Below, in pieces: positions 8,051 through 64,000 of a DNA stretch of 64,000 bases (position 1 is the first letter of the stretch; every line of letters begins with the position of its first letter). Under the pieces are notes generated by a model. It was given only the letters and a program-made list of their open reading frames with translations, searched no databases and was not told the DNA's origin. Position numbers and translations under genes: made by a program. The stretch is from Patellaria atrata CBS 101060 (lineage: Eukaryota), in assembly GCA_010093705.1 (NCBI GenBank), contig MU006091.1:248001-312000 (forward strand), given 5' to 3'.

Positions 8051-10215
8051 ATGACGTTGCTCGGATGCGTACGGCCCGAACGTAGCCTTCCTTTACAAGA
8101 TCACGTCGCTGTTGATGATGACGATATTGCCTATTCAAGTGATGATCTTGAATCAGCCAAAGGCGGTAGGGAAGAGCTCAACTCTATAAATGGACATTCA
8201 AAACTTCCGAAAATGCAACACGTTAAACGATTGGGTCATCAAACTAAGGCTAAGGCAAAGAAGGCTCTCCGGCTTCGTGAGACTCAGGCGAACATCGAAG
8301 AGGATGACGCCAGCATCAGTAAGGCTCTCGAACAGAACCCTGCATTTGCACCGGAGAAGGCTTTAGCAGGACATCAACAGAATCTCTCTGGTAAAGTCAA
8401 GAGCACGCTAGGAAAAGTACAGGACGTTGGGTTCGCAATCATCAACCCAAAAGAAACCGTGAAACATAAAGCTACCATAAAATTAGCTACAGGAGAACAA
8501 CCATTTCTTCCCCAACGAGCTGATGAGAGTCTTCTCGATGCTCATGCGGCGCTGTATGATGCTCAATCTAGACCATCAACAATAGAAGAGGACTCCGAAG
8601 ACGGAGAAGACATAATCAAATGGCAGGAGAGGATTAATGATCTTGAGGAACACCGTTCGAGTATGAAAGTGGCATGGACAACGAGCCGGTTTGTGCATAG
8701 AGTTCGTGTGCATCGGCAGGTTCCAATTGAGTATCCAACTCGTGAGGAGCTGGAGGAGTACGATGAGCACGGTAACTACGTACGGTTTCAGTGGGAAAAG
8801 TGGTTTGCGAGACTGCTTCTCCGTCTTGCGGGAGACCCTGCAACTCGAGCCATTGACAACTCTGACTTCGGAACATTTGACCGGGATCTTTTCGCACAGC
8901 ATATCGAACGTATCATCACAGCATCCGGACCGTTGCAGGAATGGTTCATTAACCTTCGAAAGATCTATCGATGGGAAGATCCTAAGCTCTCGGCTACATG
9001 GTTCATAGTGTTCCTCTTACTTTGGTATTTGGACTGTGTTATCACTTTTGGGGTACGTATTTGAATCAAAATCTAACATCGTACGCTCCATACGCTGACC
9101 TTTCCTGAAGCACGTCTGGGTCGTATTCGTAACGGTTAAGAACCGATATCGAAAAGGTTCACTTGAAGCGCTGCGCGAATCCTATGAACGTACCGTGGAC
9201 CGCGGAACTAAGGCGTACAAGTTTAGTGAATTGATCAGTAAACATGGGCAAGGTGATTGGCTTGATCCATTGGTCGAACAAATCGGGCCATCTATTGAAC
9301 TTCAGGTATGATCTAACTTCCCTCTCCAACCCTCATTAATCACCAATGCTAATAATATGTGTAGGCTAGGGATGTTGCCGATTTTATGGAAATCTTAAAA
9401 AAGTAACCATCTCCTGTCTACACTATCCCTCTTTATCATGCTAACCTCGTTACAGCTTTTATGACTGGAAGGATGTCAACAAGAGTGCTTGTTCTATATT
9501 CTACATTTGTTCGTCTATACTGCTCGGTCTACTGACTACTACACAATATTGCATGAGGATATTCACATTTGGCTGCATCATATGGTTCTTCCTAGGACGC
9601 CCTGTCGCCAGTCATCACCCTAAGTATCGACACCTAGTCAGTCCGATTAATTATGTATTTTGGGACATTCCTTCGAACGCTGAGTGGTCCTTCCGATATC
9701 TTTGTGACCGAGCGCAGAGAATGCGTCAAACTATGATTAAGCAGAAATTCGAGCAGAAGTTGGCTCGAAACGTTAGCAGCACCACTCATCCGCCGGTAAA
9801 CGCGAAAACGATTGAAAATACCGTGTTCCCAAACCGAGACGCTTTCGGAGATATTGACCTTTTCTCCTTCCGATCCCACTATCACGGACATGTGGGACAT
9901 TTCATTATCTCGACCTTAGGCTTCTGCTTCGTCCACAGCATAGCCCATAAACAACTTTGGCACCGTAAGTTTGTAGAACTAGACGAGATAAGGAAGATCA
10001 AGACGTCCAGTTCCAGGCATCTAGGTATCGACAAAGACCACTTTCTAGAATTTAGTTTTACGGACGGGAGTACGAAAACAATCGAAGTACCAAAGAAAAG
10101 GGATGAAGTGTTTAATACGGTCATAGGGTTTTCGGGGCTGCAGTGGAAGCAGCTGCAACCAAAGCCTGGAAGGTATAGGCATGATGAAGGGGGGTTTGAG
10201 GTGGGTAGTGAATAG
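8051..10215 (+). CDS. Membrane protein with C-terminal GRAM/PH-like domain (4 exons)
   Basis: Two ORFs are joined through GT-AG introns at about 9053-9110, 9306-9364 and 9403-9455. Motifs: RKIYRWEDPKLS plus TM segments, FWDIPSNAEWSF, and C-terminal RDEVFNTVIGFSGLQW. Confidence 0.7.
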
Positions 10216-43921: not shown

Positions 43922-44021
43922 NNNNNNNNNNNNNNNNNNNNNNNNNNNNNNNNNNNNNNNNNNNNNNNNNNNNNNNNNNNNNNNNNNNNNNNNNNNNNNN
44001 NNNNNNNNNNNNNNNNNNNNN
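43922..44021. other. Assembly gap (100 N)
   Basis: Run of N. Confidence 1.
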
Positions 44022-51750: not shown

Positions 51751-52701
51751 NNNNNNNNNNNNNNNNNNNNNNNNNNNNNNNNNNNNNNNNNNNNNNNNNN
51801 NNNNNNNNNNNNNNNNNNNNNNNNNNNNNNNNNNNNNNNNNNNNNNNNNNNNNNNNNNNNNNNNNNNNNNNNNNNNNNNNNNNNNNNNNNNNNNNNNNNN
51901 NNNNNNNNNNNNNNNNNNNNNNNNNNNNNNNNNNNNNNNNNNNNNNNNNNNNNNNNNNNNNNNNNNNNNNNNNNNNNNNNNNNNNNNNNNNNNNNNNNNN
52001 NNNNNNNNNNNNNNNNNNNNNNNNNNNNNNNNNNNNNNNNNNNNNNNNNNNNNNNNNNNNNNNNNNNNNNNNNNNNNNNNNNNNNNNNNNNNNNNNNNNN
52101 NNNNNNNNNNNNNNNNNNNNNNNNNNNNNNNNNNNNNNNNNNNNNNNNNNNNNNNNNNNNNNNNNNNNNNNNNNNNNNNNNNNNNNNNNNNNNNNNNNNN
52201 NNNNNNNNNNNNNNNNNNNNNNNNNNNNNNNNNNNNNNNNNNNNNNNNNNNNNNNNNNNNNNNNNNNNNNNNNNNNNNNNNNNNNNNNNNNNNNNNNNNN
52301 NNNNNNNNNNNNNNNNNNNNNNNNNNNNNNNNNNNNNNNNNNNNNNNNNNNNNNNNNNNNNNNNNNNNNNNNNNNNNNNNNNNNNNNNNNNNNNNNNNNN
52401 NNNNNNNNNNNNNNNNNNNNNNNNNNNNNNNNNNNNNNNNNNNNNNNNNNNNNNNNNNNNNNNNNNNNNNNNNNNNNNNNNNNNNNNNNNNNNNNNNNNN
52501 NNNNNNNNNNNNNNNNNNNNNNNNNNNNNNNNNNNNNNNNNNNNNNNNNNNNNNNNNNNNNNNNNNNNNNNNNNNNNNNNNNNNNNNNNNNNNNNNNNNN
52601 NNNNNNNNNNNNNNNNNNNNNNNNNNNNNNNNNNNNNNNNNNNNNNNNNNNNNNNNNNNNNNNNNNNNNNNNNNNNNNNNNNNNNNNNNNNNNNNNNNNN
52701 N
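51751..52701. other. Assembly gap (about 951 N)
   Basis: Run of N. Confidence 1.
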
Positions 52702-53358
52702 TTTCCGTTTTACGTTGTTTGAGGAAGAGTGGGTTATGAGTCTGACCCGATGGCGATATGTGTGGATGCGGATCCGGGACGGGATGATACGGCCGGGGTC
52801 TAAAGGGGTACTTTCTATCATGATATAACCGAACTTTGTATGTAAAGGTATGTATGCCTCTCTGTCTAGGCGGGAACGACACCCTCAACCCGGATGGAGC
52901 CAAATTAGAAGGAACGATGGTACGTGGAGGTACGGAAACAATCCTTCGAGATCATGCAAGTGATTGAGGTGTGTCATGATAAACCTCCAAGCTCAATTAA
53001 TAGACAGATATCATAAGCGGCAAGTGACGGAACGAGTAGGTATAACAAATACAGCTGAATATCATAAGCAGTAAGCGACGGGACAAGCAGCCATCAGAGG
53101 AGTTACAGTTAAGGGGAAAAAAAAAAAAGAAAAAACTTTTCCCTCCTGTACTTCGCAGGGCATGGGATAGTATGGCCACCATGGCATACCGTAGCCGTAC
53201 AAAACCGCTCCGGGTTATATCCTCCTATCCCTCCCGTCCCATGCATATGCCAGCCATACCCACCCACCAAAACCCAAACCCAAACCCAAACCCTCCTTAA
53301 CCCCAAACACCACCTACGCCAACGTAATCTCATCGCCAGTCCTCTCGCCAAACACCCC

Positions 53359-56300
53359 TTAAGCCAACGTAGTCTCATCCCCAGTCCCCTCACTCTCGAC
53401 CTCACTTCTCTCAAACTCACTCATCTCCCGCCTGAGCTGGGCGACCGTCTCATCCTCCTCCTCCTCCTCCTCCTCCACTTCCATGTCCATCTCCTCCATC
53501 TCCCCTTCTTCCCTCTTAACGCGTATCGGGACCTGGACCGTCGTTTCCTCCTCTTCATCCTCTTGCTTCTCCACACGCGTATCCTCCACACGACCACCCA
53601 TCCCCTCAGGCGCACTATCCCCCTCAGTGCCCTCATCCGGCGTCCCCGCATCCGGTGTAGCAGTAACATCCGTAACATCCGCATCCGCATCCCCCGTCTC
53701 CCTCGCAGCCTTAACAACCCTCCCAACAGCAGTAGCAAGTCTCGCAAGCGCATTCCGCGCCGTGGCGTCCGTAGCAACATTCGCCTCCGCAGCCTCGATG
53801 ACGAGAGCGTGGACGTTTTGCGCCAAGGACGGGGTGCAGAGGCGGGTATGCTGGGGTGGGGGGACGTGGAGTTTGGATAGCATGGAGGTGAATTGTTTTT
53901 TGGTTGTTTCTGTTTGGATATGTTAGTTTGGGTTCATGGTAGCTGATTGACTTTTTGGGTTGGGAAAAGGGAACCGTACTATTAACCTGCGGACTCACAA
54001 TCCTCTCCAACAGCTCCTCGGCCAGTATAAGATGAGAATCCGCGTCTCCCTCCTTACCGTTGTCTGAAGTTTCCCCACCGTCGCCGAATCCAACTACCCT
54101 CCGCGGATCCGTCCACTCGACCAACATACCCCCGACAACGCCCAACCCGACCATCCCCTCCATCTCGTCTTCTTCCAAGTCGTCCCTGACGCCGGCGACG
54201 CTGATGACGACTTGCACGGCGACTCTGGCCATGGCTTCCGCGTTCTGCCGCCTCGAGTGGCAGTACACGGGCAGGAAGTAGCTGAGAGCCTGTCTGACGC
54301 CTGGGTTCTCCGCCGTCTCGGGGCTGAAGAAGGCGATGGTGATGTGTTTGAGGATCGAAGCCAGGACATCCGGGTCACGGAGGATATTGAGGAGCATTAG
54401 TTTCGCGAGGGCGGTTGTAGCTGTTAGAGAGACGGAAGGAGACGAGGAGCGGAGGGCACGAAGGAGGGATTTGGTTATTGGTTTGAGGAAGGGGGAGGGT
54501 TGCTCTGATGCCGTTTCTGTTGTGTCTTGTGCGGTTGTGGTGGTGAGATTTGAAGAGGGGATGGGAGAGAGGAGGGAGGGGTGTTGGGATAGGATGTCTG
54601 AGATTATTTGTAGGGCGATCATTTGGAGTGCGTCGTGGCCTTTGGTGAAGCAGTGGAGGAAGAGGGAGAGATTTTCTTCAGCTAGGTTCTTGCTGAGTAG
54701 ACAGCACAGTCCGAGACAAAGGAGGCCGCGCTCGCGGATTGGGGCTTCTTGACTCCGTACAGCTGGGACCACGAGGTTGTTGAGCATGGTTACTAGATGG
54801 GAGTTTGCTTCGAGGTCGCAGGAGACATTCTGGAGCATGCATTGTGCGATGTGGAGGCATTTCATGTTGACCATGATTTCTCTGATCGCCTTCTCCTCAT
54901 CTATGGCTTCGTATTCGCTTTCGTCGACATCTGATTTTGACTTTTTGCTCCTCTTCTCCTTGGTTAGAGTGAGGTCCTCGCTCAGTTCCGATTGCGCGGA
55001 GTGAAAACTGTCGTCTCCCTCTTCTTCCAATTGGGAGGGCTCCTCGCCAATAATGGTATCATGCACTTCTGCTACGGCTTCAAGTACGATGCCGCAGAAC
55101 TCGCGTTCCCCGGCGGCATTGCTCCCGCAGACGGTTCGTAAAACCTCAACCGCAAGCTTGGTGCATTCTTCTGGGAGCTCGGCAATAGCGAGTGCTTCGC
55201 GCATGACGGAGAACATCATTCTTCTGCCCACTTCATCCGAGTAGTCGAGGGTGAGGGCAATATGGAGGAGTTGCTCGACGCAAAATTCCTGCTGTACGGT
55301 GTCTTCCTCTACTTCGACGTCCTCTTGGAGTGCTACTTTGCGAACGTCTTCGATGAGGACGTTGAGATGTTTCTGGAGTAGATATGCGAACTTCGTGACT
55401 TCGGGCATCTTATCTTCTACCATACCTTGGAGCTTGGTATTCTCACCCTGGCGGCAGTAATCGTTGAATGTTCGTGCGATAAAGATGCCTTCCGGTGTCA
55501 ACTCGTCCCAGAAGGAGTCGGGGAAGGAGACGTAGTCGCAGTAATCGGGTCTTCCGTCCCAGAACTGCTTCATGGCCTCAAACGCCACACCACCTTCTAC
55601 ACCAGAGTTCACCACATCAATACGTTCGAGCAGCTCGAGCAAGGCGTCTAAGCTTGGTTTTGAGACCTGGGGTCCCGGATTTGCGCATTCTTCGGCTGCT
55701 TCTTTCAGCCCAGCGCAGTCCTCGATCCATCTTTCTCGAAAGAGGCGTGCGGTAGCCTTACGGACATTCTCATCGCGATCTCGAAGACCCCATCTAAGGA
55801 GTTTCTCCCTATGTGTAAGGGATAAATGTCTAAAGTCTCCCAGAGCCGGAAGAAGACGAGCATAGAGTGCCCTACGGGTGGCGGGATCAAAGTCTCGCGC
55901 TCGCTCTAACAGGAACGGAAGCGTTGAAGGTGTAAAAGGTAAGTTCAAGAGTAAAGATCGGCGCACATCAGCGCTAGGATCATTCTGTAATACGTCTAAC
56001 AGTTTCTCAAGAACTCCACCTGAATCTTCATCATCACTGTCTTCGTCTTCATTCTCTTCACCTTCACCCGCGAGGCGGCCGAGACCTAGGATGGCTTGAA
56101 CTCGTACACTACTCTCCTTGTCTCTGAGTCGTCTTAATAACCCCAATCTTACAAGGCCGAACAATTCATCGTCGATAGAGTCTAGTGTGTTTACAATATG
56201 GGCGATTATCTGCGTCGCTCGGAACCGTACTGTCTTATCTTTAGCCAGTAAGAGTGGTAGAATCATCGTGATGATATGAGATGTCAATCGTGTAGCAGGT

Positions 56301-56800
56301 GTTTCGGGGAATGCATCGGTGGTATCCGCATCATCTGTCTGTATGAGAGCACTATCTTTATCACTTGCGTGCTTCAAAAACAGCCCCAGAAACCGCACAA
56401 CCTTATCCCCAACCGGTTCACTTTTCTTGACTGGAAGAACTCTGAGCATACATCTTCCAATCTCTTCATTGAACTCAGCTTCTCCGAAGTCCTCCTCTTG
56501 GTGCTTCTTTTTAGGCTTAACAGGTTCATAGCAGCATGCTTCATGAATTTTTCTTAGATTGATGACAAGCTTTCGCTGAATTGCAGTCGATCGTTGCGTA
56601 TCTGTAAATATAGAAGATATCTGGTTTCGTAGTGATGTATCAGGACCTTCATCAGGTATATCGACCGCATGCGCGGAGGTGCGGGTTGAGGATGCGCGTG
56701 TCTTCAGACCTTCCTTGGAAGATTTTCGCGAGACCGCAGAAGCATCGGAGCGTCTTGCAGCTTCACGGCGCGCCGCTCGTATAGAGACTCGTCCTGGCAT
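53359..56800 (-). CDS. YCG1: Condensin HEAT subunit CAP-G (Ycg1/Cnd3), 2 exons
   Basis: AKDKTVRFRATQ, RLRDKESSVRVQA, LQNDPSADVRR, LLRWGLRDRDENV, LDYSDEVGRR and RQALSYFLPVY. Intron 53910-53979 joins an acidic terminal exon. Confidence 0.92.
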
Positions 56801-56992
56801 TTTCCTGGTATGGTATTGGATAATGGTGGGTGTTGCTGCTGCATGTTTATGTTATAGAAGCGGGATGTAAACAATACCAAGAAAAGATTCTGCCGTCTGA
56901 CACCGCTTTTCAATGCCGCGGACATCGCGATATTGCGCCATCTCAAAAAATCAGTGGACGAAAACTTTCAAGACCTTAAAAACATTTTCAAA

Positions 56993-58194
56993 ATGTTCAA
57001 ATCTGTAACTAGAGGCGCTACTCAGATTGCGTCTCGAGTATCAATGTCTTCTTTATCCGAGCAGTCGGCTCGATTTCTACATATAAAAGAGGTCTCAAAA
57101 GCTCAAGGCATAGGACAAGATGGCTTCATCAGCGGTAATAGTTGATTGAACCGGTTACTACATGGATGCAACGACTGACGTATTGAATCCGAATAGCCAT
57201 TGGAAAGACTCCTTTGATCAAGCTGAAAAAGCTATCTGAAGAAACTGGCTGCGAAGTACTAGGCAAAGCAGAATTTCAAAACCCCGGTGGATCCGTCAAG
57301 GACCGCGCAGCCCTCTTCGTGGTTGAAGATGCTGAGAGACGTGGTCAATTGAGACCTGGTGGTACAGTTATTGAGGGTACTGCTGGTAATACTGGAATTG
57401 GCCTTGCACATGTATGCCGATCGAAAGGATACAAGCTTGTCATCTATATGCCAAACACCCAGTCACAGGGAAAAATAGATTTATTGCGGCTTCTAGGTGC
57501 TGAGGTCTTCCCTGTTCCCGCCGTAGCATTCGACAACCCGCAAAACTATAATCATCAGGCGAAGAGGCATGCTGAAAATCTTGATAACGCTGTTTGGACG
57601 AATCAATTCGATAATGTTGCAAACAGACAAGCGCATATAGAAACAACCGGCCCTGAGATCTGGTATCAGACGGAAGGAAAGGTCGATGCCTTTACCTGCT
57701 CAACAGGGACCGCTGGGACATTAGCAGGCGTGACACGGTACCTTAAGGAGATATCAGATGGACGAGTGAAGTCGTTCCTTGCAGATCCTCCCGGTTCCGT
57801 ACTACATTCCTACATCCAAAGTGGCGGCAAGCTCATCGAAAGATCTGGCTCATCAATTACTGAAGGTATCGGTCAAGGGCGTATAACCGACAATCTAAAA
57901 CCGGATCTCGATCTATTGGACGGCTCATTACACATAAGCGATGAAAAGTCTATCGCCATGGTCTATCGATGCTTAGATGAAGATGGTTTGTATCTTGGTG
58001 CCAGCTCTTGCTTGAATGTTGTGGCTGCAAAGGAGGTAGCAGAAAAACTTGGACCTGGACATACGGTTGTAACAATGCTATGCGACGGTGCATATAGATA
58101 TGCGGATAGACTCTTTTCAAAGAAGTGGTTACAGGAGAAGAATTTGTTAGATGCTATTCCTGAGCATCTCAAGAGATATATCGTCCTACCTTAG
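56993..58194 (+). CDS. cysB: Cysteine synthase (O-acetylserine sulfhydrylase family) with mitochondrial-type presequence, 2 exons
   Basis: [16 protein letters not shown] presequence and intron 57135-57196, then [21 protein letters not shown] (PLP lysine), [20 protein letters not shown] and EGIGQG. Confidence 0.92.
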
Positions 58195-58744
58195 CTGGAG
58201 AAGGTACTTTAACATCTGTCGATTGTATGTCTGGAGGTGAATGCTCACTGTCTTCTCCCTTTTCATTATTTCCAATTCCTCGGTTTGGTATACGCTCAAC
58301 GACCTGACCTCTAGTCTAAAGTACCGATGTATTTCAATACAGGTACAGTTTAGGTATTTGTACAGCTTACAGTTCCTTGTATAATTTTACTTCTTTACGT
58401 ATGGCGAGGTCAGAGTCCAATTTTAAAGCGCCATACAGCACGTTAGGAGTACCAGATCAAGCAAAGGGAGTAAGCTGTTCCATCTTTGTATATAAGTCTT
58501 GAGCAAACAAGAACATATTCATACCCAAATTACTCATAGCGACTGCTGTAAAAGATGGAAAAGTTAGGAAGCAGCGTCTTAGGCAAATTTAGGTCTCAGC
58601 AATAAATCCCTTCGATTGTCTTTTTCAGTTCTTTCGTCTCTCAAACATTCTCTAACACTAGTTACATATTTACGTCTATCGTTATTTTCCCCAGGTAAAA
58701 ATATTCAGAAGTCTATCGTTGTATCTGTCTACATTGGTATCAAA

Positions 58745-59785
58745 ATGCCCTTTCTATGTCTGAGCTTCCAATTCAGCTTTAATCATCCAAGCACTGACTG
58801 CTTTATAGTCCAATCAATTCGGTCTTTACAGCACCAACGGTCTCATGACACGAGCTCTACTACTATCCATCACCCCAGGTCCCGAAGGGGTGCTCGTGTC
58901 TATACGGCAGAACGGTTACATGAAATTCAGGAAGCACCCTACAGAACTCGAACGATCCAGGCTGAGATTACTATCTATCATGCCCGCCTTCGTAACGAAA
59001 ATGACAGAGTTTTATATCCTCTAATTATTAAATTCCTTGCCAATCGCCTAGAACTCTTACGCATTGAATCGAGAAGAATGGACGTAACCCACTATTTCGG
59101 TTTCAATGAAGCTTGCAATCTTCTCCTCTTCGAAACAGCTGCTACCTTTCCGATGTTTCTAAACCCTTTGTGGTTTGAAGCTTTTCGGCCAACGGGCGTT
59201 GTATCCTCGATTAGTCTTCTCGCACACTATGTCTCTCGTATATGCTGGCACCCGATTTCTTACCAACAATGGAACCGATGCTCAAGAGCGATACAACGGA
59301 TACTAGAAATTGTTGATGAGGGCTCGCCAATTACTTTGCGGGCAACGTCTCCCCAACCGCGTATTAATCACCTGTACCGACTCCTACCAGAAGATCCTTC
59401 CTCTCCCTTAGAAAGCGATGAGGTATCAGACAATGGTACCATTTCCAACCTGTACCGTAATGATACAGAACATCATTGTTTATTGATATCTGTCGACGAA
59501 TGGCTTTCTGATCAAGTTATTGAACGTGTTGAAGAGTACGAATCCGAGATCCACATGCTATCTGGCCGATTCCCTATTAACTTTGCTGGTTTTCTCAATT
59601 ATGATGAACCGGTGGAAGTAGTATTGGAGCTGGGACGGCGGTTGTTGACTTATCCGTGGTTATCTGCTCAGCAGAGAAGACAGATAAACTTCTACGTAGA
59701 CCAAGCGTACACCAGAAGGGGCAATCGGCACGGGGACGTTGTAGAAGATTGGGAGAGGAGGGATATGATCAGGAGAAATTGGTAA
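58745..59785 (+). CDS. Hypothetical (orphan-like) protein
   Basis: Open frame over 1 kb from the ATG at 58745, possibly with a 51-nt in-frame intron at 58758-58808. No recognisable motif. Confidence 0.5.
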   Translation: MPFLCLSFQFSFNHPSTDCFIVQSIRSLQHQRSHDTSSTTIHHPRSRRGARVYTAERLHEIQEAPYRTRTIQAEITIYHARLRNENDRVLYPLIIKFLANRLELLRIESRRMDVTHYFGFNEACNLLLFETAATFPMFLNPLWFEAFRPTGVVSSISLLAHYVSRICWHPISYQQWNRCSRAIQRILEIVDEGSPITLRATSPQPRINHLYRLLPEDPSSPLESDEVSDNGTISNLYRNDTEHHCLLISVDEWLSDQVIERVEEYESEIHMLSGRFPINFAGFLNYDEPVEVVLELGRRLLTYPWLSAQQRRQINFYVDQAYTRRGNRHGDVVEDWERRDMIRRNW

Positions 59786-60190
59786 TCGGGTAGTTGTATA
59801 TGCCGTACACATGTTTCGAAGCTAGTGGGCTTGTCCATTCATTTGTTACTAAAGGAAATTCCGTAGTCGATGTGCTTGACATTAATGCAAGCTCTTGTTA
59901 CTCGTAGGCTTCTTGGAACAGATAGGTTTTTCAAATATTGTAACTGTGATCACCACTTACAAGAGAAGAGTGTAAACTCGGTCAAATCCAGAGCAGTGAA
60001 GTATGATGATGCGTAGGTGATGCATGGGTGCTTCAATTCTGCGCTTATGGGCCGTTCCGGCAACCGTATCAGCCCTGAGGAAGTTCTCCATGTCGCGGAT
60101 CATATGGTCTGATGTCTCTACATCTTTCGACAAATTCGCAACCAGCCTCAATTGAATGAAATCTGTTCATCAACTTTTGAAAGAACAATT

Positions 60191-60800
60191 ATGAATACAG
60201 TAAGGGATTTCACTTCTATTGATAAAATCGAACTTCTGCTAACCGTTTGACAACAGCTTAGATCAGTCGGGTTAGGACTTCCGCATTTTCTAACAAGATC
60301 TCCACAACAGTAACGTGAAGTGCTCGACTGATTCCTTCATTGCAGGTACGGTTGGGGCGTCCTAATTCTCGGTACATCTCCTATTATCTCCTGATATCTT
60401 TCTTCCCTATCCACGACCCTTCTTCAACTTCTCTCCTTCAATCCACAGTGCCACCACACACAAACACTAACACCCGTCTCCCACAGCCGGTGGTGGCGCC
60501 TACTACTTCGCAAAAAAGAGCATCAATGCGGATCGCGCCGAACGAGCTGCCGCAGAGCGCGAGCGTAGAGCTCGATGGGAAGACGTCGAATACAACAACC
60601 CTTCACCCGCACGGATGAATCAGCCTGCGACACAGTATTCTCCGAGCTCGGTGTCGCAGGGGGGGAAGAACAAACCACCCAGCGGGGATGTGACGGGTGA
60701 TCCGGCGAAAGAGGCGAGTCAAGATCCGGCACCCAGCGGGGAGAAAGGGTATCAGGCGACAGAGCCGTGGAGGAGTAAGAAGGGGGATAGGTTTTCGTAG
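60191..60800 (+). CDS. Small 120-aa protein with a single TM segment (DUF4748-like), 4 exons including microexons
   Basis: Exons 60191-60199, 60257-60270, 60346-60371 and 60487-60800 total 363 nt and give MNTLRSVGYGWGVLILAGGGAYYFAKKSINADRAER...EPWRSKKGDRFS*. All three introns are GT-AG with branch sites. The family name is from memory. Confidence 0.8.
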
Positions 60801-61224
60801 GATGTTGGAAAGAACAAAAAGAATGATAAGAGACTATGAGACTAAGAGGAAAAGTCATGACATGTTTCTCTTTGATGAGATGATCGAGCTGTATGATAGG
60901 AGGATTTAGAATCAAATCAAAAGTCTGTATATATGTTGAATGCATGATTTGCGTTCAGGGGAAAGAATATCTCAACTCAGGAAGACAATTTCCATTATTG
61001 AAGTAAGTTTGACCATAATACGAAGACTACTAATTGTCCAAGCATCGTCACCCCGCCACCCAAAAGCAAACCATACGCCAACCTAATGCCCATTTCAAGC
61101 GGCCGATTTGGTCTGGCCCTCCTCAAAACGCCAAAAGCGAGGCTATGTCACTCATAGTCATGCAAAATATGCAACAATATCGTTTCCCACGCTCAAAACC
61201 CACATGTTACTCCAAACATTCGCT

Positions 61225-61529
61225 TTATCTTAAACCAGGGACTTGAAATGGCCCAGGTACGAATTTGATAGGAGGCCTACAACCAGAATATGGATCAGTT
61301 CATCTTGCTTTCATAGTACACTAGCACGCGGCGCTCTACCACGCATCTCTCCCTTTAATGGAACCACTTACCGTGTCTTCCAACTCCCGTCCTTCTTCGC
61401 GCTTCGACTCTGCGCAATAGGATATATGAATGGTACTGTCAAGGCACTGACGAGGTATAGTGTACTCGCTGCCTTGAGCATGAAGGAGGGAGGGGTTGGT
61501 CTTGCGGAATAATGCCGCATATTGATCAT
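61225..61529 (-). CDS. Putative small 69-aa hydrophobic protein, 2 exons
   Basis: ATG at 61529 (ACCATG). Exon 61529-61372, intron 61371-61277 (GTAAGT..CTGAT..TAG), exon 61276-61225: MINMRHYSARPTPPSFMLKAASTLYLVSALTVPFIYPIAQSRSAKKDGSWKTRPPIKFVPGPFQVPGLR*. Confidence 0.45.
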
Positions 61530-62923
61530 GGTGTTGGTATGCTCTCCTACTTTCGAGAGAAAAGATATATTAAGTCGGTAGTCAGGAGAAGGAACACAAC
61601 AAACGCCGCGAGGATTCGGAGGAAGCTTAAGACGACTTTTCTGGGGACAAGGCGTTTGGACTAGTGAACGGTTGTGGAACTACGTCTGCTTTTAAGGTCG
61701 AGTTCGGCGTGGTGTGCCTGGTAGGGGTAGATCTCAGGTAAGAAAGTCGAGGAATGATGTAAGAGAAGCTAGTGGCATGTGAATTAGGACCGTTACTCGG
61801 CTCGTAATGCGACTTAAGCAAGTAACTGTAAGCTTATTTTCGATCGAGTGATTGCGCAGTGGGATAGTCGTGTCTATCGCGCTTAGTGCGTGATTAGTGC
61901 GTGTTGATCCCTCCGATCTGAGGAGATATTAACCGAACAAATTCTGGGACGGGGAGGTAGAAAATCGAAGTGGAAGTTGGCAGTTGGGGTTTTATCTTTT
62001 TATTTGTTTAATTGTTCACTTGCGAAGAGTTTATACCGCCCAGTCCCCCTTTGTGGGGACTGTTGAGGTTTGTGGTGTGATATATGTCCCACATTTGTGC
62101 AATCAGGGTCAGCCATACAAGGCAAGGCGGGCAGAGACGGGTCAATGACCACATTACGCCGTGTTTGTTTGTTATGCAAAATTTCTCTATACAGTCAGCA
62201 CGGGAGAGAAAGCTGTTGGAGATCTTCTAGCTTTGCAAATCTCCCGTCTTTCTAACTTACTATCACTGCAAAACTACGTCAAATCATCTATTTACACTTC
62301 AACGATGAAGTAACGACTATCTTTCAATCCGAAGATACAACCCGAAACCGAGAAATGACGAACTGTCCTCAACTAGGCAGAAGTTCTGGAATGATCAGGA
62401 GAGAAACTGATAAATGCAGTGAGGTCGGAGCCTGGTGCAGGAAGTTTGTAATATGATGTCGATGATTGGTCCAACAAATTCCTGAACAATGACCTTCGAT
62501 TTGCAGGATTTGATTTATCATTTCAAGCTCAGACTCTACCTCGTACAGTGCGTTTACGATTATTCTCAGAGCACATGAACTTACAGGCCTGATCGTCCAT
62601 CAAACGTTGAGTGGAACTGCACCTCACCAGTCTCCTCGGATGAGAAGGGCTCAGGATCGCAGTTGGTCACTGAAAAGCTTTGGCCAGATCAAAAGCCATT
62701 TCAGTATCACACAAGTAACGCAATAGGTACTCGATACAGATATGCTGTTAAGTTCTTGTACTGTACAGTCATTGGTGAAACCTTGAATTAGAAGTACTTT
62801 TTACTTTTGAAGATATATCTAATATACAATGAGCAGAACAAAAAAGCAACGTCTTTAACAAAAGGGTATATAACAGGACAGGAAGTATGAATATAAGAGA
62901 AAAGGTGTGACTTCTAGTCGCCA

Positions 62924-64000
62924 TTATGGCCCTAGCTCTGTCCCTATATGTACAGGACTCCAACCTACCCGTGACTTCGGAGGCAACGCTTCCAGAAATG
63001 AGTCGCATATATACTGAACCTGTTCCGACTTTAGGTAGGGATTCATTGGAAGGCTTAATATTCGTTCAGCTAACCAGTCGCTGTTCGCAAGTATTTGACC
63101 TTCCACGGTGTATTTCTCAAAAGCCAGATGCCGGTGTAAAGGCTTTGGATAGTATATTCCAGTCGAGATGCCTTTCAGTTCGAGTTCTTTGCGAATCTTC
63201 TCCCTCATATTCTCATTCTCGACAGTTACTGTGAACAGACCCCGGGCGTGTACATCTGTTTGGGAAATCTTCTGCACTGGGACTATTTTTTCCAGTTGGT
63301 CTTCATACATCTTTGCAACCCTCCTTCTCTCATGCAATTCTTCGTCCAGTATGGCTAACTTCGAAAGAAGTATTGCACATTGCATTGAGTCGAGACGCCC
63401 GTTAAGCCCAACCCGGATACTCATGGATCTAGCATCGTCCGTTCCGTGCCACCGTATAGATTTCCACCTTTTAAATCTTTCAAGGTCATCCGTGAATAGC
63501 GCTCCTCCATCACCGAATCCACCCAAAGATTTGGATGGGTAGAAACTAGTCGCCGTCATGTCTGCTAGAGTACCCACCCTTTGACCATTTTGCGATCCAC
63601 CAAATGACTGAGCAGCATCAGCCAAAACAATCATCTGAAACTTTCGAGCAATTCGATTGATCTCTGCGTAGTTTGCGGGCAGTCCATACAGGTCGACTGC
63701 GATTATAACTCTGGGTCTCAGTTTACCTTCGGTGACGACTCTCTGGATGGCGAGTTCGAGCGATCTGATGCAGATATTGCATGTATCTCGTTCTACGTCG
63801 ACGAAAATGGGTACCGCACCTGCTGTCAACACTGCGTTACACGTTGCGTTGTAGGTAAACGCTGGAATGAAAACAGCTTCATTTGGACCTAAATCTTCGC
63901 CCATCAGCGCTATCGTCAATGCAGTGGTCCCACTCGATACGGTCAGGGCATACTTTGCACCAGTGTATGAGGCCAACGATGCTTCCAACTCAGTCACCTC
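62924..64000 (-). CDS. DegT/DnrJ/EryC1/StrS-family PLP-dependent sugar aminotransferase (WbpE-like), 5' end beyond the window
   Basis: EVTELEASLASYTG, SSGTTAL, PAFTYNAT, PIFVDV, VDLYGLPA, ADAAQSFG, TSFYPSKSLGGFGDGG (PLP lysine), GLNGRLD, YYPKPLH and LSLPM. No intron in the visible 1.08 kb. Confidence 0.92.
   Translation of the reverse strand, partial: EVTELEASLASYTGAKYALTVSSGTTALTIALMGEDLGPNEAVFIPAFTYNATCNAVLTAGAVPIFVDVERDTCNICIRSLELAIQRVVTEGKLRPRVIIAVDLYGLPANYAEINRIARKFQMIVLADAAQSFGGSQNGQRVGTLADMTATSFYPSKSLGGFGDGGALFTDDLERFKRWKSIRWHGTDDARSMSIRVGLNGRLDSMQCAILLSKLAILDEELHERRRVAKMYEDQLEKIVPVQKISQTDVHARGLFTVTVENENMREKIRKELELKGISTGIYYPKPLHRHLAFEKYTVEGQILANSDWLAERILSLPMNPYLKSEQVQYICDSFLEALPPKSRVGWSPVHIGTELGP

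Follow-up and report, generated by a model that had tools for sequence, protein, structure and literature searches.

A Gfo/Idh/MocA-DegT fusion gene in the fungus Patellaria atrata, apparently derived from an alphaproteobacterial gene pair and probably encoding a GnnA-GnnB-type enzyme

How did an aminotransferase of the kind that builds bacterial amino sugars come to lie in a fungal chromosome, and what might it do there? The question is raised by the end of a 64,000-nucleotide stretch of Patellaria atrata CBS 101060 (GenBank assembly GCA_010093705.1, contig MU006091.1, positions 248,001 to 312,000 of the forward strand), hereafter named the window. An earlier note, made from the letters alone, had proposed that this gene is a horizontally acquired relative of WbpE, intact and intronless, at the edge of an amino-sugar pathway. 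The computational analysis reported here indicates that the window holds part of a larger gene. In our judgement it is moderately probable, on the comparisons given below, that this nuclear gene of a Dothideomycete encodes a 708-residue bifunctional enzyme of the GnnA-GnnB type, descended from a bacterial gene pair and making the 3-amino sugar UDP-GlcNAc3N (UDP, uridine diphosphate; GlcNAc, N-acetylglucosamine).

The open reading frame (ORF) occupies window positions 62924..64000 on the minus strand, where its 358 codons form a frame that is open at the 5' end and runs off the window edge. It belongs to Pfam family PF01041 (DegT_DnrJ_EryC1), which it matched with an E-value of 1.9e-87 over profile positions 26-359 of 360, at 294.3 bits for a gathering cut-off of 19.8. 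A homologue search among 1.84 billion representatives returned a database protein of 708 aa, P0121, 100% identical to the ORF (query residues 1-345, P0121 residues 360-704). P0121 carries a Gfo/Idh/MocA domain (PF01408, residues 6-122, 1.6e-26, 93.8 bits for a cut-off of 24) ahead of the DegT domain (PF01041, residues 339-694, 8e-92, 308.7 bits), so that no more than the 3' half of this bifunctional gene lies in the window. The 5' part, beyond base 64000, encodes residues 1-359, namely the oxidoreductase domain, a linker of 18 residues and the first part of the DegT domain; being outside the window, the Gfo/Idh/MocA part is known from P0121 alone. The keto-sugar-forming dehydrogenase that such an aminotransferase was said to need as a partner is thus present, fused at the N-terminus.

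Within the window, the main exon (62969..64000, minus strand) encodes P0121 residues 360-703, nearly the whole DegT aminotransferase domain, which depends on pyridoxal phosphate (PLP). The tail of P0121 differs from that of the ORF, and exon 64000..62969 joined to 62818..62801 translates exactly as P0121 residues 360-708, so that the database model must remove an intron of 150 nt. This predicted intron (62819..62968, minus strand, GTAGGT...TATTAG, GC 0.39) is followed in the model by a last micro-exon of 5 codons and a stop (62801..62818, minus strand). If it is left unspliced, the frame reads through into an alternative tail of 13 codons and a stop (62924..62968, minus strand, stop at 62926-62924). 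The description of the ORF as intact and intronless therefore has to be amended: it is intronless as far as the DegT domain goes but not in the database model, and intactness is a matter for the whole gene, of which the window has residues 360 onward of 708.

The setting is that of a fungal chromosome, because the ORF adjoins, without a gap, a condensin ORF and an ORF resembling cysteine synthase (PALP), and because the matches of the condensin are fungal: the best (98%) is from Patellaria atrata CBS 101060 itself, followed by other Dothideomycetes at about 70%. The only runs of N in the window, presumably scaffold gaps, are at 43922-44021 (100 bases) and 51751-52701 (951 bases), so that 52702-64000 is gap-free, as had been claimed together with the two neighbours, which we confirmed. 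The PF01041 match and the fungal condensin also agree with the view of a bacterial-type sugar aminotransferase lodged in fungal DNA. Continuity across 60-64 kb, which had been named as a point to verify, was read from Logan contigs of two public runs. One contig of run X2 (record 11, 11,104 nt) spans 56067-64000 and extends 3,170 nt past the window, and one of run X1 (record 2) spans 56960-64000 plus 421 nt; compared with the window, neither has any difference, indel or joint. Their depths are near those of flanking contigs (322 vs 282 and 460 vs 365). GC at third codon positions (GC3) is 0.47-0.48 for the ORF, inside the span seen in 16 further long ORFs from the window (0.41-0.60), and reaches 0.86 in the closest bacterial pair.

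The bacterial state from which such a fusion may have come can be seen in extant genomes. In the closest named genome, 'Alphaproteobacteria bacterium SO-S41' (locus L081), separate genes encode the two proteins. P0121 residues 6-307 aligned with residues 32-333 of its oxidoreductase (343 aa) at 50% identity, and residues 326-698 with residues 5-373 of its aminotransferase, up to the very end of that protein, at 59% identity. These alignments describe an end-to-end fusion with an 18-residue linker, and by the same comparison all residues after 698 are a fungal addition. The two genes of SO-S41 overlap as ATGA at 8936-8939, a stop/start overlap of the kind that usually signals translational coupling. 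From metagenome contigs and GTDB genome contigs, scans yielded 160 loci. In 83 of them the oxidoreductase gene lay directly upstream of the aminotransferase gene on the same strand, never fused to it (0/83), and in 34 of these pairs the stop codon of the oxidoreductase gene was followed at once by open aminotransferase frame. Each of the 31 full-coverage metagenome loci that we examined consisted of two ORFs with a GC content of 0.56-0.70; the metagenome scan returned bacterial-type two-gene loci only, and the contigs of two fused proteins from the Joint Genome Institute (JGI), P0273 and P0274, were not among them. In four named alphaproteobacterial loci, the pair was flanked by housekeeping genes, outside any polysaccharide or antibiotic cluster: an oxidoreductase resembling zinc-dependent alcohol dehydrogenase (4/4), NAD synthase (3/4), and Glu- and Cys-tRNA ligases (2/4). 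No acetyltransferase or epimerase lay beside the sister pairs in these four loci.

Fused relatives of P0121 are few. The best 120 of 5,024 significant matches to the aminotransferase alone (8,000 scored) included stand-alone proteins of 351-393 aa with at most 61% identity, those with a named source being from alphaproteobacterial metagenome-assembled genomes (54-61%); P0015 (617 aa), also among the 120, is a fusion in truncated form. The search with full-length P0121 gave 85 significant matches among 8,000 scored. Its fused relatives comprise P0271-P0275 and P0015 (53-60% identity), five Beauveria clusters (48-49%) and P0280 (37%). The Beauveria fusion is found in seven named species, on contigs of up to 7.9 Mb, under the database names 'eryC1', 'pleiotropic regulatory protein' and 'UDP-2-acetamido-2-deoxy-3-oxo-D-glucuronate aminotransferase'. 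Among source-named proteins, full-length relatives occur only in this genus, despite the many Dothideomycete proteomes in the database. Fungi may have the Gfo+DegT architecture more often than sequence searches would indicate: an ESM Atlas cluster of 72 members (843-aa representative) consists of such fusions, 90% eukaryotic and mostly from Ascomycota. This cluster scores 0.97 with P0121 and 0.96 with a distant fusion, P0157, and does not separate the two families.

Both halves of the fungal protein trace to the same bacterial neighbours. In a quick tree of the DegT domain (122 rows, 373 columns), 11 fusion proteins formed a clade with a support of 99 in the Shimodaira-Hasegawa-like approximate likelihood ratio test (SH-aLRT), within a 28-row clade (100) otherwise made of Micropepsaceae-type alphaproteobacterial pairs. 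The oxidoreductase tree (56 rows, leaving out P0015, which lacks most of the domain, and 15 near-redundant Hyphomonadaceae loci) gave a 10-row fusion clade (99), sister to the group of loci L081-L088 (98). A more careful concatenated tree of 43 rows and 693 columns excluded P0015, P0277 and P0278 and contained 31 bacterial pairs in which both genes were present, 9 proteins of the fusion clade, two distant fusions and P0280. Here the fusion clade was supported at 100/99, the node joining it to L081-L088 at 100/98 and the larger Micropepsaceae-type clade at 100/99. Monophyly of all 31 bacterial pairs was rejected by the approximately unbiased (AU) test (delta lnL 82.4, p 1.08e-05). On these trees, the fungal clade arose within the alphaproteobacterial pairs, nearest to the Micropepsaceae-type group, and the fungal fusions (window gene, seven Beauveria species, P0271-P0275 and P0015) are one clade with a single origin. 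The horizontal transfer that had been suspected is thus supported by this placement, by the AU test and by a patchy distribution among source-named fungi, which are this species and Beauveria. As for the course of events, an adjacent, translationally coupled pair of an alphaproteobacterium near Micropepsaceae-type lineages would be the ancestor of both halves; the pair would have moved together into a fungal ancestor, fused once, and now be kept by a small number of scattered fungi. How many transfers took place among fungi, and in which direction, we infer.

The same trees bear on how often such fusions have formed. P0280 grouped with Rhodobiaceae pairs, and P0157, P0183 and P0158, together with the nemertean protein P0215, lay elsewhere in the DegT and oxidoreductase trees; the two families have therefore fused several times independently, with at least two further fusion lineages besides the fungal one. 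P0280 represents a cluster of 12 members from several sources, is a Gfo-DegT fusion of 726 aa, and is an independent fusion, probably bacterial. The nemertean Tubulanus polymorphus encodes more distant Gfo-DegT and hexapeptide-transferase-DegT fusions (P0215, P0352, P0353, P0182, P0514, P0515), as well as a 'UDP-N-acetylglucosamine 3-dehydrogenase-like' protein, on contigs of 11.5 and 27.8 Mb; here, too, a bacterial amino-sugar pathway may have been transferred into a eukaryote. Three loci (L086, L091 and L094) come from metagenome-assembled genomes titled 'uncultured Flavobacteriaceae bacterium', yet their pairs nest tightly among Micropepsaceae/alphaproteobacterial pairs in all trees, and the bin labels look wrong.

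What the fused enzyme may do was approached through its nearest characterised neighbours. P0121 matched 71 PDB chains at E <= 1e-10, of which 60 were listed. Among the matches listed, the only full-length one for the N-terminal half was 7bvj (7.8e-29, residues 6-304), the other chains of the Gfo family being confined to residues 4-176 or less. The sister bacterial oxidoreductase also had 7bvj as its best PDB match (3.8e-35, the next at 1.4e-15). This structure is GnnA, the UDP-GlcNAc 3-dehydrogenase, according to the accessible part of a preprint. The NCBIfam model NF040723, 'UDP-N-acetylglucosamine 3-dehydrogenase', aligned with P0121 almost end to end (1.8e-42, profile positions 1-301 of 302). 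For the C-terminal half, the order of PDB matches was 4qgr (1.4e-86), 8e75/8e77, then WbpE (about 1e-73), and the window ORF alone likewise preferred 4qgr (6.4e-81) to WbpE (9.3e-66 to 6.4e-65). The best structure match, 4qgr, annotated as 'DegT/DnrJ/EryC1/StrS aminotransferase', is a stand-alone protein of 382 aa, unlike the fungal one, with which it has a 7-residue insertion in common. The segment beginning VVTEGKLRP, which the earlier note had singled out, lies in this 7-residue stretch, which is found also in the aminotransferase of SO-S41 and is a gap in WbpE and in 8e75/8e77.

Residues expected of a working enzyme are conserved on both sides of the linker. Invariant in all 12 aligned fusion proteins are E94, K95 and P96 (EKP), H166, D167, D487, A488, A489, Q490, S491 and K516, and the glycines of the GxGxxG motif (G12, G14, G17) are at least 90% conserved among them. 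We take EKP, GxGxxG, the H/D residues, D487, Q490 and K516 to serve in the binding of nicotinamide adenine dinucleotide (NAD), in catalysis and in PLP binding; the active-site lysine presumably sits in the motif S-F-x-P-S/T-K, and the stretch D-A-A-Q-S presumably binds PLP. K516 aligns with the corresponding lysine of WbpE, 4qgr and 8e75. The ESM Atlas model of P0121 has a mean predicted local distance difference test score (pLDDT) of 0.84, and its residues 322-698 superpose on models of bacterial stand-alone DegT proteins with a template modelling (TM) score of 0.99. Having GnnA (7bvj) as nearest neighbour, conserved motifs and a confident Atlas model, the protein is therefore read as a GnnA-GnnB-type fusion making a UDP-3-amino sugar. 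In this scheme, the first domain would carry out the NAD-dependent oxidation of the 3-hydroxyl of UDP-GlcNAc to a 3-keto sugar, which the second would convert to UDP-GlcNAc3N by PLP-dependent transamination from an amino-acid donor; the fusion might allow the keto intermediate to pass directly to the second active site. We infer the nucleotide-sugar substrate and product, as well as expression and downstream use, the substrate being suggested by the nearest neighbours.

In bacteria, GnnA oxidises the 3-hydroxyl of UDP-GlcNAc and GnnB transaminates the product to UDP-GlcNAc3N, the source of 2,3-diamino-glucose in lipid A, according to the accessible text of two articles that cite Sweet et al. 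2004 (PMC5644692, PMC8036547). In several Alphaproteobacteria, as stated in the text available for one of them, gnnA and gnnB lie close together and apart from the lpx cluster (PMC5644692). The fungal fusion has the same two families in the same order, and its closest bacterial relatives are adjacent pairs that also stand apart from lpx genes. Unlike GnnA and GnnB, the fungal protein is a single polypeptide, in a host without a lipid A pathway, and its identity to the nearest pair is about 50% and 59% for the two halves.

The C-terminal additions may hold a clue to where the enzyme acts. The consensus of type 1 peroxisomal targeting signals (PTS1) is a C-terminal tripeptide [SAC][KRH][LM]. Among P0271-P0275 and P0015, the last three residues are AKL or ARL in five of the six proteins and PKL in the other, at the end of a 10-15-residue tail that is missing from the bacterial proteins. 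Canonical endings occur in only 2 of the 120 best stand-alone matches (one being the fused P0015) and in 1 of 148 more distant representatives. These tails look like an acquired peroxisomal targeting signal, as far as sequence tells. The Beauveria proteins end in RPM or RRM and are without the PTS1-like tail, and the window protein ends in ...YLQK (database model) or ...ELGP (read-through), neither of which is PTS1-like. An alternative last exon with a PTS1-like tripeptide was sought in 61800-63000, and none was convincing ('GRV' only). We would tentatively extend our reading as follows, while regarding the extension as a good deal less probable than the reading itself: a few ascomycetes may have domesticated the first two enzymes of the diamino-lipid-A branch as one protein, targeted to peroxisomes in most carriers, where it would make available a 3-amino-3-deoxy sugar, UDP-GlcNAc3N or one derived from it, for a fungal glycoconjugate or natural product yet to be described.

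Several points weigh against the reading as a GnnA-GnnB-type enzyme of bacterial descent. The match to NF040723 amounts to 145.9 bits for a curated cut-off of 450 in a model built for archaeal enzymes, so that P0121 does not qualify as an equivalog, and among aminotransferase equivalog models no cut-off was reached, the best being PseC (216 for a cut-off of 423.5). To our knowledge fungi make no lipid A, and the bacterial consumer of UDP-GlcNAc3N, LpxA in the lipid A pathway, is therefore absent; a Pfam scan of ORF pieces in the 4.7 kb on the 3' side gave no candidate for another. Since the window protein is without a PTS1-like tail, the copies may not share one cellular role. On the side of descent, holding together the 14 Micropepsaceae-type pairs, a group picked after seeing the tree, was not rejected by the AU test (delta lnL 10.06, p 0.156), and the fungal clade may therefore stand beside that group as its sister and not inside it. 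Members of the fungal clade share 48-61% identity, so low a level that a single ancient transfer followed by many losses is indistinguishable from spread from fungus to fungus. The correlation of relative synonymous codon usage (RSCU) with pooled host ORFs, a weak test in this low-bias genome, was 0.06, second lowest of 17 (host ORFs, -0.08 to 0.57), which makes the ORF host-like only weakly. Finally, the two runs behind the Logan contigs come from one sample, possibly the source data of the assembly itself, which limits their independence.

Of the other explanations, the one that survives best keeps the gene and its origin and makes it a counterpart of WbpB/WbpE, oxidising and aminating the uronic acid UDP-GlcNAcA towards a 2,3-diacetamido uronic sugar. 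Those enzymes perform the same chemistry on UDP-GlcNAcA, in the O-antigen pathway to UDP-ManNAc3NAcA, according to the part of the article that is accessible (PMC10622841). The likeness is real: in WbpB/WbpE (WlbA/WlbC) too, a Gfo/Idh/MocA 3-dehydrogenase and then a DegT 3-aminotransferase act on a UDP-2-acetamido sugar, the C-terminal half strongly matches WbpE structures (about 1e-73), and several sources name relatives after the 3-oxo-glucuronate substrate. Some fungi, moreover, have a UDP-GlcNAc 6-dehydrogenase, as reported in the accessible part of PMC4059230. That paper, when considered as a prior report of the fusion, turned out, in the same part, to concern a different gene pair. Against this, 4qgr and 8e75/8e77 match better than WbpE, in which the 7-residue segment common to the fungal protein and 4qgr is missing. 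Structures of WbpB/WlbA exist in the PDB, yet no such chain was among the 60 of 71 matches listed, in which GnnA was the sole full-length match of the N-terminal half; the protein was accordingly not placed in the WbpB/WbpE subtype. The names given by the sources come from automatic annotation, the sister pairs in bacteria are isolated, without the acetyltransferase or epimerase of such a pathway, and no WbpA, WbpD or WbpI partner was seen with the fungal gene. We consider this substrate unlikely. The earlier note's choice of WbpE as functional relative is thus right as to the family, and GnnB, with GnnA, is the closer analogue.

Slightly less likely still, to our mind, is that the substrate is not a nucleotide sugar at all, the same gene converting myo-inositol to scyllo-inosamine, or glucose-6-phosphate to kanosamine-6-phosphate as NtdC/NtdA do, and feeding a fungal secondary metabolite. 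The kanosamine enzymes NtdC/NtdA and the pair of inositol dehydrogenase and scyllo-inosose aminotransferase belong to the same superfamilies and likewise couple NAD-dependent oxidation with PLP-dependent transamination. P0121 does match 7b0d, 'glutamine--scyllo-inositol transaminase' (9.7e-62), NtdA (3.5e-39) and iolG (6.7e-20); the constraint on the substrate went with the lipid A context, and the PTS1-like tails of the relatives would suit a peroxisomal small-molecule pathway. These matches are much weaker, however: NtdA and 7b0d fall far below 4qgr and WbpE, and those to inositol dehydrogenases, iolG included, are confined to residues 6-126, in the Rossmann part, whereas GnnA and NF040723 align end to end.

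Could the gene be a decaying or silent relic of the transfer in this species, merely still open in the window? Its C-terminus, unlike that of all relatives and without a PTS1-like ending, and the low RSCU correlation would fit such a fate. Yet the frame is open over all 358 window codons, P0121 keeps every listed invariant column of the 12-protein alignment, motif residues included, and its terminal branch in the concatenated tree, at 0.40, is not long beside the 0.14-0.69 of its relatives. We regard decay as improbable.

Highly improbable is the view that the gene is an old, vertically inherited eukaryotic or fungal one whose bacterial similarity reflects deep common ancestry. It draws on the low identities within the fungal clade (48-61%), which imply age, and on the 72-member, mostly Ascomycota Atlas cluster with the same architecture. 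It is opposed by the AU test, which rejects a fungal clade apart from the alphaproteobacterial pairs (p 1.08e-05), by the independent attachment of both halves to the same bacterial subgroup, and by the restriction of source-named full-length relatives to Beauveria. An assembly chimera or a bacterial contaminant joined to a fungal scaffold, as the alphaproteobacterial nature of the best stand-alone matches (54-61%, best 120 of 5,024) and the N gaps elsewhere in the scaffold might suggest, is very unlikely and the least probable of all, given that single Logan contigs from two runs bridge the condensin gene, the DegT ORF and beyond at even depth, that GC3 is 0.47 vs 0.86 in the bacterial pair, that no bacterial protein exceeds 61% identity among the matches listed, and that the fused form is absent from 83/83 bacterial/metagenomic pairs and present on megabase-scale Beauveria contigs.

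On the 3' side of the gene, nothing resembling a pathway was found. The condensin Cnd3 ORF lies at 53711-56851 on the minus strand (PF12719, 1.6e-81), and the PALP/cysteine-synthase-like ORF, another eukaryotic neighbour, at 57187-58194 on the plus strand. Between the latter and the DegT gene, a 400-codon open frame without a Pfam match (58583-59785, plus strand) is followed by a short ORF piece with a DUF4748 match (60471-60797, plus strand, 2.4e-13). This was the one Pfam match that a scan of 58200-62923 gave among 50 ORF pieces, each 45 aa or longer. Of the proposal that the gene was fused to, or the last member of, an amino-sugar system, the fusion therefore stands and the wider gene cluster finds no support over this interval. 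Two further features of the region are of a technical nature. The Logan contigs of run X2 split at 56006-56096 into pieces of 31 and 60 nt, with versions at about 490-500x and 5-10x that differ in a single letter, a small variant bubble within the condensin gene. Stop-free 'ORFs' across 51.0-52.9 kb are artefacts of the second N gap.

The fungal gene has a precedent in another eukaryotic kingdom. In the dinoflagellate Karenia brevis, Nosenko & Bhattacharya (2007) described a GFO/IDH/MocA-DegT fusion, 'MviM-WecE', and attributed it, in the accessible text, to one horizontal gene transfer (HGT) from proteobacteria of two genes adjacent in an operon, the GC being like that of the host and separate homologues occurring in excavates (PMC2064935). 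As given in that text, the layout is similar, with 361 aa, a 10-aa spacer and 368 aa in Karenia, and about 307, 18 and about 373 aa in the fungus, and the proposed origin is the same, an adjacent proteobacterial pair acquired by HGT. The comparison is one of descriptions, made without the Karenia sequence, and fungi go unmentioned in the accessible part of that paper. Also published is a DegT aminotransferase of patchy occurrence, known from Andalucia and a few protists. No paper on the fungal fusion was found in the literature searched, although subscription journals and the supplements of fungal HGT surveys, which lay outside the search, may list the family. HGT-derived Gfo-DegT fusions in eukaryotes have thus been in print since 2007, and the fungal gene adds a further case to them.

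The locus offers a clean and well-supported case of a bacterial operon pair that became one eukaryotic gene, with the same alphaproteobacterial lineages as nearest kin of both halves. Bacteria still show the two ORFs overlapping or abutting, and the fungal additions can be seen as well: a linker, C-terminal tails that are often PTS1-like, a predicted intron and a host-like GC3. The protein is already present in public databases, under generic or misleading names such as 'eryC1' and 'pleiotropic regulatory protein'. If the enzyme does make a 3-amino sugar, these fungi, including the insect pathogen and biocontrol genus Beauveria, would hold a building block not so far known from fungal glycobiology, one whose consumer would deserve attention, and a natural GnnA-GnnB fusion would be a convenient single-gene tool for UDP-GlcNAc3N. 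If the peroxisomal extension were also true, a sugar unreported in fungal metabolism would be made in an organelle for which no handling of nucleotide sugars is known. What use fungi have for a 3-amino sugar enzyme, and what lies behind the apparent targeting of most copies to peroxisomes, is a potentially valuable question.

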